Source: Octopus vulgaris (lineage: Eukaryota). Taken from it: 64,000 nucleotides of DNA. The DNA lies in NCBI GenBank assembly GCA_951406725.2, contig OX597840.1:3782001-3846000 (forward strand), read 5' to 3'. The position numbers and the translations under genes were made by a program. Shown here one piece after another: positions 17,187 through 55,774 of this stretch; within the stretch, counting starts at the first letter, position 1, and each line of letters begins with the position of its first letter. A model generated the notes under the pieces. It was given only the letters and a program-made list of their open reading frames with translations, ran no database searches and was not told the DNA's origin.

Positions 17187-17768
17187 CTTTTCTACTCGAG
17201 GCACAAAGCCTGAAATTTTGGGGAAGGGGGCCAGTCGATTAGATCGACCCCAGTATGCAACTGATTGTTAATTTATTGACCCCCAAAAGAATGAAAGGCA
17301 ACGTCAACCTCGGCGGAATTTGAATTCAGAACATAAAGACAGACGAAATGCCTATTTCTTTACTACCCACAAGGGTCTAAACACAGAGGGGACAAACAAG
17401 GACAGACAATCGGATTAAGTCGATTATATCGACCCAGTGCGTAACTGGTACTTGTTTAATCGACCCCGAAAGGAAGAAAGGCAAAGTCGACCTCGGCGGG
17501 ATTTTAACTCATAACGTAACGGCAGACCAAATACCTGTTTCTTTATTACCCACAAGGGACTAAACATGGAGGGGACAAACAAGGACAGACAAAGGGATTA
17601 AGTCGGTTACATCGACCCTAGTGCGTAACTGGTACTTATTTAAACGACACCGAAAGAATGAAAGGCAAAGTCGACCTCGGTGGGATTTGAACTCAGAACG
17701 TAGAGGCAAGCGAAATACAGCAAAGCATTTGCTCCAGCTTGCTAGCCATTCTGCTAGCTCGTCGCTTC
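17187..17768 (-). mobile_element. Family A SINE trimer (head + unit/tail1 + unit/tail1 + unit/tail2)
   Basis: Three Nin-like domains; junctions at 17351/2 and 17534/5; 17-bp TSD gacaggttagtaagaat at 17170-17186 and 17769-17785. Confidence 0.92.
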
Positions 17769-17867
17769 GACAGGTTAGTAAGAATATATTAGAGAAAGTT
17801 ATACACACACACACACACACACACACACATACACACACACACACACACATATGTTTGTATGTATGTA

Positions 17868-18263
17868 TTCTTTTCTTTATTCTTTTACTTGTTTCATTCA
17901 CTGTGCTCATGCTGGAGCACCACCTTGAATAGACATTTTAACCGAACAAATCGACCTAAGGACTTCTGTTTTGAGCCTGGTACTAATCTGAAATGGGACC
18001 TTACGGAGACGTAAACACACTAACACCGGTTGTCAAGCGGTGATAGGGGCAACAAACACAGACACAAAGACACTCACACGTAGATATACAAATGTATATA
18101 TACGACGGGATTCTTTCAATTTCCGTCTATCAAATCCACTCGCGAGGCTTTGATCGGCCAGGGTTATGGTAGAAGACGCTTGCCCAAGGTGCTACGAAGT
18201 GGGATTGAACCTGGAATCATGTGGTTCAAAGCAAGCTTCTTACAACACAGCCAAACCTCGCCT
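17868..18263 (-). mobile_element. Family B SINE, diverged
   Basis: Reverse complement of the 16048-16453 type along its length. Confidence 0.85.
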
Positions 18264-18419
18264 AGCCACAAATACACACAAACACACAAACACACACAAA
18301 CATAGAGACAGACATATGTATATATATATATATATATATATATATATATATATATATATATACACATGAAGAGAGGAAGAATATGTGTATTGTTGCATCA
18401 TAACACGCAAATAGATAGA

Positions 18420-18915
18420 TACATACATACATATGTGCATACGTACGTATATATATATATTCGTACGTACGTACGTGTGTACACACACATACATACACAT
18501 ATACATACATACACATATACATATATACATGCATACATACATACATACATACATACATACATACATACATACTCACATACATACCTGTATGATACATACA
18601 TACACGCATACATAATATATGCATACATACATACATGCATACATACATACAAGCATACATACATACATACAAACATACATACATACATACATACATACAT
18701 ACACGCATACATAATATATGCATACATACATGCATACATACATACAAGCATACATACATACATACAAACATACATACAAACATACATACATACATACATA
18801 CATACATACATACATACAATCATACATACATACATACATACATACATACATACATACATACATACATACATACATACATACATACATACGTACATACATA
18901 CACACATACACACAC
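18420..18915. repeat. (TACA)n tetranucleotide array with internal block duplications
   Basis: Direct observation; cacgcatacataatatatgcatac block repeated at about 18603 and 18701. Confidence 0.95.
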
Positions 18916-20479
18916 AGAGAACACAGTAAGAAAGCAAGGTTGCAACATGACTCACAAACAGCGGCTCGGTTAGTAGAGACGTAATAGAGAAAGACATAAA
19001 CGTGCGTGGCTGCTTCATAATTCACGAACAGCAAAGAAGTTAGTACAATTATGTTTTAAACTTTTATCGGATTTAACGGGTCAGTAGTTACCAGCTCTGT
19101 TAAAGACATTAGAAAAGGTAGCATTGAACTCGCTTCCTATTTTCTGAAAAATAAAAGTTTTACTTCTCTATAACCTTGCCAACAGACAAGAAGCAGGTCA
19201 AAGCAGACAATAAAAGAGGCATATACATATATATATATATATATATATAAGATTACAGAAATTTGCACATATTTACGTATATGTATACACACACATATAT
19301 ATATATATGTGTGTTCGAGCAAATACATATGTGTACATATTTATGTGTGTATGTATGTGTATATATATATATATATATATATATATATATATATATATAT
19401 GTATATATATATATACATTTATAAACACGTATACTTTCAAGTAGACGCATTTACAAACGGTCCTGTATATAAATTGACTTATAGGAAAAAAAAAAAATAT
19501 ATATATATATATATATATACATATATACATATACATATATATATATACATATATATATATGTATATATGTATGTATATATATATATATATGTATATATAT
19601 ATATATATTATATTTATATATATACATATATATACCTACATATATACATGTAAAACATATATGTGTGTGAGTATGTGTGTATGTCTGTATGCATGTGTGT
19701 GAACTCAGGAATATATGAAATTCCTGACTTTCTATCAACAGCTGCCTTCAAGCTAAATGAAATATTTATTCTCTCTCACTCTTGTTTCCAACCTACTCAT
19801 ATATGTGTATATCAATATGAATAAACGCATATATGCATATATATAGAGAGAGACAGACATATATATATGTATATATATATATATATATATATATATATAT
19901 ATATATATATATATATATATATATATATATACATATATATGTATGTACGTAAATATGAAGAGCCTTCCTTACGTATACATAAATAAGATATATTCTTACA
20001 AAGAAACACACGAGTGACAAATACATTCATCAATATAGATAATCAATACATGTATATGTTAGTGTATGCGTGTGTATTTATCTATATATGGATATATATA
20101 CATAGACACGCACACATATATATTAATATATATTATATATCTATATGTATATTTATATATATGTATATATGTATATTTATATATATGTATATATGTATAA
20201 GTATATATATATATATATGTATATATATATATATGCATACATATATATATATATATCGTTTGGTCTTAAGTAATATCTAGGCGCACGGATGTAGTTGTAC
20301 AATTACATATACACGTATTTTGTTTGACACGTACTCTCTGCACCCACGCACGCACGTATAACATTAAAAAATCTAACATATTGTATATTTTATGAATATT
20401 CTCTGAAAGATCTGTCCGCATGCGTGCACGTGTGCGTATATATGCATAAGCGTGTGCTTATATGCATACAAAATACGTG

Positions 20480-21385
20480 GGGTACTTGCCAAACTTCCCT
20501 GGAAAAGGGAGGCCTGACTTCCTATAAAAATTCGTAATCTTGTCGATGACGAGAAACCTATGAAATTTTGCGCGTATCACCCGTTAATTATGGGTATTAT
20601 ATAACTCTTGGTTTCTTGAAACAGCCGTTGAGATAAGGCATTATTTAATTTGTCTCCATATTCACTTTTCTGTATTTTTACTATGTTATATTTTATATAA
20701 TCTTTATATGTGTGGTGCTCCACGTAAAAAGATATGTATCAAGCCTAACTGTGCTTATCTCTCTTACTACTAAATAGATGGATATATATATTTATCTTTT
20801 ATTAAATTTTTAATACTTTTGATATATATTTAAAATAATATAAATTAATTAACTTTATGTATTGGCTTATGTTTTTCATTGTTTGATTTGCCTAATAGTG
20901 GTTTGATCTCTAATTTAATATAATTTTGTTTAAATTGTGTATATTACCTGGGCGATAAACTTTTGCTCTTCTCTTTTGTAAAAGTCCAACGTCTCTTGGC
21001 TACTATTGACAAGGTGAGACAATTGCGATGCTAATGACAGCTATAAAGGCAGAAACGCGTACCCATGTCTGTTCTCTTACTTCTGCGTTTCCTTAACGGC
21101 ATATCAATTTTGGAAGATTCTTGATTATTGATTGGTTCTTAACTGAAGCTGGTCTTAATTATCATTTGGCAATTATGATTCCCTTCTCATTTATATATAT
21201 ATATATATATAAATGCCTCACACTAGGAATAACAAACTCTCCTAGCGTGAGGTATTTATTATAGAAATGCATTTAATATAGATAAAAATATTTAAAGGGA
21301 ATAATTAATAAATGTTTCCCTTATGAGGATTTTCACGCTAACTACTTGATAAATTCGTATAAAGATTTTATACTATTTTTAACTA
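20480..21385. mobile_element. Probable Penelope-like pLTR remnants adjoining (TA)n
   Basis: Degenerate hammerhead ctaatga-cagc-tataaag-gca-gaaacgcgta at 21031-21061 with palindromic ACGCGT helix III; ~16-bp hairpin at 21212-21254; TA runs at the boundaries. Confidence 0.45.
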
Positions 21386-54428: not shown

Positions 54429-54689
54429 AATTATAAAATATAAATGATGTATCCAACATAAATCACAAAAGTATACAGGGAAATAACATCAATAGTAACA
54501 AGAACAACCGTCATGAATGAATTTTGCGAAATCATTCTGTATTATTCGAGAGACTCCAGTAATTACTGGTACATTTTGGCTTGTCTTTCTCCAATAAAAA
54601 AATCCCGATTTATTGACTTGATATGTTCTTCTGCATCATTTCACTTATCACCGCCTAATTTATTCATTTGATAATTTACTCTTTACATG

Positions 54690-54925
54690 TAGGTCTTTAG
54701 CAACCATACATATCTTGAGAACGATGTGGAGGTACTTCTTTTCATCGTATGCAATGGTAGATTTATGGTTAAAAAAGCATTATTTAAAAATAAGCTCATA
54801 AAATTCACTGTAATATCTCGCAGTTCTCTTTTCTTTACCCTCTTGGGATGCAATTTTATCTTTGTAGATAATTGCTTTACAAATTAATTTTACCCATTGA
54901 GACAAAACCTCTTCTTCGTCTTATA
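54690..54925 (-). pseudogene. Penelope-like GIY-YIG endonuclease fragment (Naiad-like)
   Basis: Minus-strand translation AIIYKDKI...RYYSEFYELIFK*CFFNHKSTI...STSFSRYVWLLK matches the IIYKA..YYIG...FKxRxxNHKSSF...STxLSKYVWxLK pattern. Confidence 0.7.
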
Positions 54926-54989
54926 CCTATATTTGTTTCTTGTGTTGTCCTCTTATAACATATTTGTATTTCGATGTTCATAATATCGA

Positions 54990-55112
54990 TTTCTTACATT
55001 GGCACAAGGCCACTCACTTTTTTGAAAGACATAGTTGAATAAAGCAGGCTGTATTATGTTATCGATCTCTCTTTATGAAAGGCAAAGTTCATTTTGGTGT
55101 CATTCAAACTCA
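54990..55112 (-). mobile_element. Very degenerate family A SINE remnant
   Basis: ggcacaaggcc...ttatcgatc...atgaaaggcaaagtt. Confidence 0.5.
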
Positions 55113-55361
55113 AAGCATGTGAAAACACATGTGAAGACACTGGTTAACACGAAGTCACTTCTGGTTATATTTGATATTACATTTTATTAAGTAGCAAGCT
55201 ATTTTACAGTCTGCGTTGCCTAAACTTGGCTAATTGGCTAAGAGTTTTATCTTCTCTCCAAACCCAATTCCCAATAAGTCATTTTGGGAATTTGTAGAAG
55301 ATTTTTACTTACGGTTGATGGAGCTAAAGAATTATCAGATATTCTATTAGTACTCTATTCT

Positions 55362-55774
55362 TATTTCTTTATTGTCCACAAAGGGCTAAACATAGAGGGG
55401 ACAAACAAGGACAGACATAGGTATTAAGTCAATTACATCGACCCAGTGCGTAACTGGTACTTAATTTATCGACCCCGAAAGGATGAAAGGTAAAGTCGAC
55501 CCCGGCGGAATTTGAACTCAGATTATAAAGACAGACGAAATACCTATTTCTTTACTACCCACAAGGGGTTAAACACAAAGGGGACAAACAAGGACAGACA
55601 AATGGATTAAGTCGATTACATTTACCCCAGTGCGTAACTGGTACTTAATTTATCGACCCCGAAAGGATGAAAGGCAAAGTCGACCTCGGCGGAATTTGAA
55701 CTCAGAACGTAACGCAGACGAAATACCGCTAAGCATTTCGCCCGGCGTGCTAACGACTCTGCCAGCTCGCCGCC
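55362..55774 (-). mobile_element. Family A SINE dimer (head + unit/tail1 x2)
   Basis: Junction gacgaaatac|ctatttcttt at 55543/4; 15-bp TSD ttagt(a/g)ctctattct at 55347-55361 and 55775-55789. Confidence 0.93.

Follow-up and report, generated by a model that had tools for sequence, protein, structure and literature searches.

How a short interspersed nuclear element (SINE) comes to form chains whose units always meet at the same base is the question raised by a stretch of the Octopus vulgaris genome (GenBank assembly GCA_951406725.2, contig OX597840.1, positions 3,782,001 to 3,846,000), which we analysed over its whole length of 64,000 nucleotides and refer to as the window. The answer that we consider probable is that copies ending in one particular tail, tail 1, insert at the first base of GGTATTTC in older copies of their own family. 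The site is likely found by RNA pairing and reverse transcription is likely carried out by a long interspersed nuclear element (LINE) of the L1/Tx1 type, while the chains move whole and likely grow by DNA duplication.

Profiles were built for a head (H, 49 nt), a body (B, 117 nt) and three tails (T1, 67 nt; T2, 51 nt; T3, 52 nt), and all copies were parsed with them; the repeat unit B+T1 measures 184 bp. On the minus strand, the window harbours a trimer H-B-T1-B-T1-B-T2 (17187-17765), which consists of a head (17719-17765), unit 1 (17535-17718), unit 2 (17352-17534), a last body (17234-17351) and T2 (17187-17232). The end of T1 meets a body start at 17535/17534 and, leading onto a T2-type body, at 17352/17351; this junction is called J1. 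The 17-bp target-site duplications (TSDs) of the trimer, at 17769-17785 (5′ copy) and 17170-17186 (3′ copy), match exactly. A dimer on the same strand (55362-55775, junction 55544/55543) is enclosed by a 15-bp TSD with one mismatch (55775-55789 and 55347-55361). It has the structure H-B-T1-B-T1, in which the inner tail carries a TAGT variant (t-type) and the terminal one a CAAT variant (c-type). The same order of tail types is found in a dimer on the plus strand (46899-47313, junction 47130/47131), and a fourth multimer, H-B-T1-B-T2, lies on the minus strand (40478-40878, junction 40645/40644). In addition, profile parsing gave three monomers: H-B-T1 (3468-3698, plus strand), H-B-T2 of an older type (25819-26037, minus strand) and H-B-T3 (24832-25040, minus strand).

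These seven copies and five junctions had all been listed in the original prediction, made from the letters of the window, and were recovered at the places given there; merely the copy at 24838, described as a head with tail 2, ends instead in the third tail. All five junctions lie in register. The TSDs around the trimer and the dimer were present as described, and since they surround whole multimers, they show multimers moving as units, as had been proposed. Furthermore, the junction base is the first base of the 3′ arm of a 12-bp hairpin in the tRNA-like head (55716-55743, minus strand), an arm that opens with the self-insertion site GGTATTTC. This placement had also been predicted, and fold prediction returned the hairpin for each of the two heads tested (z −1.64 and −4.81).

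To follow the junction beyond the window, we sampled the genome (2.8 Gb in about 30 large contigs) in 160 evenly spaced stretches of 10 kb, 1.6 Mb in total, two of which adjoin the window. Nesting at the junction base was found at loci L081 and L117 (2/110 elements in this random sample, against 0.012 expected by chance for that base). L081 opens with an old head; next come 14 nt that duplicate this copy's own body start, a new H-B-T1, a repeat of the 14-nt segment and the old T3 body. The same nesting is seen at L117, here at an existing junction, and L025, a locus picked by similarity, is also nested and shares a private T-run. In these insertions the TSD starts from the junction base, and they show that the junction arises on DNA during retrotransposition, by self-insertion at a fixed base.

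The whole genome was then searched for the 16-mer of a site followed by 0-12 nt and a new head. A new head was located within 12 nt of the junction site 50 times, compared to 2 and 6 times for two body sites, 0 times for a tail site and 9 times for the site at head positions 11-26. Per 10,000 estimated sites this amounts to 10.2 for the junction, 0.1 and 0.36 for the body, 0 for the tail and 1.05 for the head, so that the junction site is hit about 28-100 times more than the two body controls. The first 30 of the 50 junction matches were examined and represent 26 distinct loci, in 12 of which the copy after the tail is a closer match to the left segment than the start of the new copy's own body is. 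An older outer head together with an outer TSD was found at L151, L152, L167, L170 and L173. Two further arrangements were observed on the way: L184 (around 1500) holds four tandem copies of head positions 1-26 within one TSD, which suggests re-initiation at the 5′ end or slippage, and at L014 (minus strand) a head with body positions 1-52 directly precedes a trimer, which might reflect a TSD of 52 nt at the self-site.

Away from the edges of the sampled stretches, the elements took the forms HB1 (66), HB3 (62), HB2 (50), HB1B1 (12), HB1B2 (11), HB1B1B1 (7) and HB1B3 (2), the digits denoting tails, next to rarer forms and many fragments. Multimers made up 39 of the 105 head-started tail-1 elements (37%), with 66, 26, 11, 1 and 1 elements having one to five units, respectively. 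A body followed the tail in 60/161 cases for T1, 4/83 for T2 and 3/77 for T3; joins after T2 and T3 were irregular, and regular ones occurred only after tail 1. Among the 66 T1-to-body joins, 57 were in exact register, three had an extra AAATAG repeat, three were deleted just downstream and three showed other offsets. The internal tail was t-type in 52 of these 66, whereas true terminal tails are often c-type; the two types are distinguished by no more than two positions just ahead of the register.

The genome contains 23,606 instances of the exact 27-mer of the t-type junction and none of its reversed control, and the junction is therefore not due to chance. Scaled from the sample, J1 junctions would number on the order of 100,000 genome-wide. 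The original prediction had assumed one invariant junction; J1 is indeed fixed and in register, but a second junction, J2, joins T1 to head position 16. It is formed by c-type tails, whose own continuation is AGAAAT. Exact counts were 23,606 for t-J1, 222 for t-J2, 545 for c-J1 and 2,026 for c-J2; these include amplified descendants and therefore show an association rather than event rates. The last units of multimers belong to one of four lineages (T1, young T2, old T2, T3) and change over to it no more than about 12 nt from the junction, in agreement with the earlier suggestion that tails are swapped between copies, and the heads are mostly T1-type. At L223, J2 links five or more units with t-type tails into an array.

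The tail type is also reflected in the targets. Most TSDs of T1-ended copies begin directly after GAAATA, and the target DNA opens with letters resembling those that follow the register in the element. In t-type terminal T1 copies (n = 54) the next letters were GGT in 23 and AGA in 7, whereas in c-type copies (n = 37) they were GGT in 0 and AGA in 22 (Fisher p 8e-9 for the GGT and AGA cells by tail type, 91 terminal T1 copies); the other classes were TATA-like, GAWA and other. Both GGT and AGA are also present in the head of the SINE itself. A TSD could be scored in 26 of 68 full-head copies, and its upstream copy is pure target DNA. This copy started with GGT in 7/17 t-type and 0/9 c-type elements, against a GGT background of 1%, so that many apparent monomers end at a junction-type tail. 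Such tails on monomers would fit priming at the internal tail of a multimer RNA. The exact match between the target and the element's own continuation spans 3-7 nt. A short match would be enough for self-targeting, because body starts of the family make up 28% of the GGTATTT sites and 65% of the GGTATTTC sites in the sample.

We propose four steps that would lead from single copies to arrays. First, tail-1 insertions end at the register GAAATA, at targets that start with letters like the continuation of the element, as seen in the sequence. Second, insertions of this kind occur inside older H-B-T1, H-B-T2 or H-B-T3 copies, as the nested loci show: the new H-B-T1, with a TSD on either side, comes to separate the old head from the old body and tail, and the inner part forms a seamless dimer that brings a new promoter. 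Third, this inner cassette would be transcribed and pasted as a multimer; TSDs mark such units, and their descent from nested sources is our suggestion. Its RNA would read through the tail into GGTATTTC, and priming at the internal tail may generate shorter t-type copies with a renewed preference for GGT sites, which would close a positive feedback loop. Fourth, unequal exchange or slippage between units might produce long homogeneous arrays. Going further, we lean slightly towards the view that a SINE transcribed by RNA polymerase III (Pol III) has evolved self-homing. The letters past the tail recognised by the LINE would serve as a short guide, and an early insertion into its own head would have rewritten this guide, resulting in feedback and in seamless junctions on the order of 100,000. 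The two tail alleles with two guides and two self-sites would then be a natural test that RNA, and not only an endonuclease, picks the target.

A candidate for the enzyme source was found in a young LINE with two open reading frames (ORFs). The 3′ part of T1 aligns with the end of this LINE with a score of 63, compared to a mean of 27 and a maximum of 51 in 2,000 shuffles. The LINE is abundant (L101:3099-5170; L262-L269), with many genomic copies 99-100% identical over the 154 aa searched, and its intact ORF2 of 1,152 aa harbours endonuclease (APE), reverse transcriptase and zf-RVT domains. By its anatomy it is likely of the L1/Tx1 type and a candidate partner of the SINE. The long ORF1 frame had no Pfam match, a homologue search with the LINE returned no clade names, and no LINE partner was found for T2 or T3. 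Non-SINE sequences ending in T1-like tails were observed at L148, L060, L126 and L275, and a wider set of elements may share a T1-like 3′ recognition signal. We also considered whether the LINE itself is joined at the J1 site, but of eight examined among 34 genome matches to a LINE-like tail plus the site, seven were SINE tail variants and one was another sequence.

Several observations weigh against self-insertion guided by RNA and have to be set beside the data above. A preference of the endonuclease for GGTAT, or for the hairpin, could produce an identical pattern. The candidate LINE inserts in (TATC)n, where 8/8 of the 3′ ends and 7/8 of the 5′ stretches examined were located, and it is a candidate relative rather than a proven partner. 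Many copies of both tail types sit at TATA-like sites, and five of the seven t-type copies followed by AGA belong to one array. Among the 26 pattern loci, six tie between the two origins of the left segment, one favours the new copy's own start and seven are without an internal tail-body join; moreover, the better score at L156, L157 and L158 is due to mutations carried by the first body. Template jumping may have produced some left segments as 5′-end re-copies, as appears to be the case for most of the matches at head 11-26. Finally, only two multimers in the 1.6 Mb keep the old outer head, and so we infer nested descent for the majority, among them the four multimers of the window.

The strongest rival, which we still regard as unlikely, accepts the self-insertion and has the site set by the endonuclease of the partner LINE or by the DNA hairpin; t-type and c-type tails would be subfamilies served by different LINEs, with RNA pairing secondary. 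It would agree with the accessible part of the work on Tx1-clade elements, which holds the endonuclease mainly responsible for the choice of target (PMC4494074). The LINE found here is specific for a microsatellite, the site lies inside a 12-bp inverted repeat, and the sequence at L275, which is not a SINE, has its T1-like end joined at the J1 site. This rival does not explain why t and c tails, only two positions apart, switch target class to fit their own downstream letters. In addition, both tail types also use TATA-like sites, and GGT targets are found in unique DNA where no hairpin is present.

We give slightly less credit to template jumping, by which most junctions would be made or copied as the reverse transcriptase switches from one linear SINE RNA to another, either at the hairpin or anywhere within the body that they share; multimers would then arise at insertion with no nested DNA stage. 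In favour of it, TSDs enclose most multimers in their entirety with no head left over, their bodies are mosaics of subfamily sites, and the head duplications suggest that the enzyme can re-initiate on the head; template switching is also the usual proposal for the exchange of SINE modules, judging from the portion of the literature consulted (PMC4824008). However, it leaves unexplained the inner TSDs that start from the junction base inside older copies, the GGT-starting targets in unique DNA and the near absence of internal T2 and T3. Template jumping is a possible contributor.

It is improbable that one or a few ancestral dimers carried the junction and that all variation arose by DNA recombination and gene conversion. 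The prevalence of the TAGT variant in internal tails (52/66) would fit such an origin, as would the homogeneity of long arrays and the 8 of 38 neighbouring unit pairs whose distance falls below the 5th percentile for unrelated ones. On the other hand, the junctions lead into four body lineages with a switch within about 12 nt, and 545 c-type J1, the second junction J2 and observed nested insertions would all have to be accounted for. The nested loci weaken DNA recombination as a sole cause, and it would hold as the growth step of long arrays. A single fixed master was rejected as the sole cause in view of the four body lineages and the nested loci, and units were not found to cluster strictly by position, as the original prediction had supposed for descent from one or two masters.

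The mechanism favoured in that prediction, repeated copying of a 184-nt template that becomes circular or pseudo-circular when the RNA 3′ end pairs with the hairpin arm, now seems very improbable. The junction of such a circle would be identical to the genomic one. It would account for the fixed junction and for unit numbers (66/26/11/1/1) that drop roughly geometrically, and a few trimers (L040, L082) share private variants in all units. The complementarity between tail and hairpin arm exists; it is equally an identity with the 5′ arm of the hairpin, and the junction region folds no better than shuffled sequences (z −0.69). Copying from one template predicts about 92% agreement between neighbours, based on a per-site divergence of 4.2%. 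Instead, agreement at six subfamily sites was 25/34, 28/38, 17/36, 17/27, 19/34 and 21/35 (47-74%), compared to 0.49-0.55 in unrelated pairs, and the median difference between neighbouring units (n = 38) was 16/184, against a mean of 18.6 for unrelated pairs. In the window, neighbouring units differ at 22, 19 and 17 sites, the first value being that of units 1 and 2 of the trimer (22/183 aligned sites). Rolling-circle copying is thus not supported, because neighbouring units mostly differ like unrelated copies and last units come from other lineages; the 8 of 38 pairs below the 5th percentile of the null indicate that a minority of neighbours is related. A retrozyme was rejected on the same discordance and on the hammerhead core CTGAnGA, which was present on neither strand of the unit consensus; an Rfam scan of the window gave no match. 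Termination by Pol III at the junction was dismissed as well, since the unit consensus is without a T4 run and the same letters occur in every head.

Long arrays, chosen for clustered junctions, show a different picture. At L232, which has 11 units, inner neighbours are 0-1 apart yet 4-6 from the consensus, and L233, L234, L236 and L238 resemble it, whereas L243 and several trimers are heterogeneous. Such near-identical inner units would be consistent with later duplication at the DNA level, after insertion. The homogeneous arrays also look younger than the insertion that carries them, which again speaks against a circular template; the flanks of L232 show, by eye, a decayed TSD-like match. 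Arrays of another kind, with a 60-70-bp unit of head and short body start, precede a normal copy at L164, L176, L158 and L179 (around position 1500), and at L164 the head-plus-TSD units expand to about 20 heads.

The family as a whole accounts for 5.3% of the 1.6-Mb sample. It is interspersed and high-copy, its copies are shorter than 1 kb and its TSDs are variable, with a TSD score of at least 10 in 56/179 copies compared to 2/400 shuffled pairs. The head has an A-box motif at position 12 and a B-box-like segment that misses the strict pattern used, with one mismatch by eye; ARAGORN and Rfam found no intact tRNA. Head, dispersal and LINE-like tail all agree with a tRNA-derived SINE, as far as can be judged from sequence. 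The body had been labelled a Nin domain. The three hallmark motifs of Nin-DC (Deu) SINEs, taken from supplement 4 of PMC4758252, matched at best with 4/11, 3/11 and 2/9 mismatches, and the body has only CCGAGGTC in common with the Nin domains of that supplement (PMC4758252); over the full length the comparison was made by eye. On this motif test it is therefore not a Nin SINE, and no match of its central domain to a named domain was found. Octopus families OK, OR1 and OR2 were reportedly described by Ohshima and Okada in 1994, and OR1 and OR2 are listed as CORE-SINEs; a CORE motif was not seen by eye in the present SINE.

Elements with related habits are known. Self-nesting LINEs such as Zepp insert into their own copies, and in R1/SART the RNA read-through pairs with the target, but these are autonomous elements with dedicated targets, whereas a Pol III SINE is concerned here. 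Metazoan retrozymes form tandem 170-400-bp units inside TSDs and need a hammerhead and circular RNA; here the unit consensus has no hammerhead and the units are discordant. In the blood clam Scapharca broughtonii, also a mollusc, TSD-(SINE)n-TSD arrays likewise have one full head, repeated head-truncated units and one enclosing TSD (PMC11481361). According to the sections available, they comprise about 3% of the SINEs and are attributed to unequal recombination, compared to the 37% of tail-1 elements and the junctions via nested insertion at a tail-matched site described here (PMC11481361). Squamate sSat repeats share tandem units cut from a SINE, a longer terminal unit and a homogeneity that rises with array length; the consulted part of the report presents them as DNA-level satellites with no true dimeric SINEs, whereas here dimers and trimers retrotranspose as TSD-flanked units (PMC10702118). 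Crocodilian SINEU-3 likewise borrows its target preference from a Tx1-clade LINE, Tx1-Mar, and inserts sequentially in tandem, and co-transcribed target sequence can strengthen the targeting, as stated in the accessible text (PMC4494074). Its target is another transposon and its whole tandem SINEs are separated by TSDs, in contrast to the own head and the two tail variants with two self-sites seen here (PMC4494074). Complex SINEs of dimeric or trimeric build, such as Alu, also amplify as multimeric units; as far as the SINEBase description seen goes, they have a fixed structure from a single fusion, whereas the present chains are open-ended, recurrent and built from head-less units (PMC3531059). 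We found no description of a SINE inserting at a fixed site of its own head in the literature searched, which left most subscription papers out of reach.

In this family, the path from dispersed to multimeric SINEs, to tails exchanged among subfamilies and to tandem arrays can be seen; for such steps, template switching or unequal crossover is usually invoked with no direct intermediate to show for it. The family also makes testable how far the RNA 3′ extension, as opposed to the endonuclease, selects the site in L1/Tx1-type retrotransposition, and such assays could draw on a young LINE whose tail is related and whose ORF2 is intact in many copies.

Among the remaining features of the window are a 3′-truncated copy of the family with head and body positions 2-33 (16912-16991, minus strand) and a decayed body fragment (7838-7905, minus strand). 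Comparison of 17020-17800 with four public contig sets gave matches that were swamped by family copies. A 415-bp segment of another SINE family flanks the dimer at 46899 on both sides (46355-46769 and 47313-47730, 404/415 identical); the right copy begins where the dimer ends, with AAGAAG, and the segment may thus represent a rearranged TSD of unusual length. A second abundant SINE family is located at 15990-16520, 34500-35700, 45113-45580, 53700-54430, 56700-57030 and 62000-62480. It carries what we take to be a CORE-like motif, possibly marking it as OR1 or OR2, and its copies are often nested or arranged in inverted pairs.

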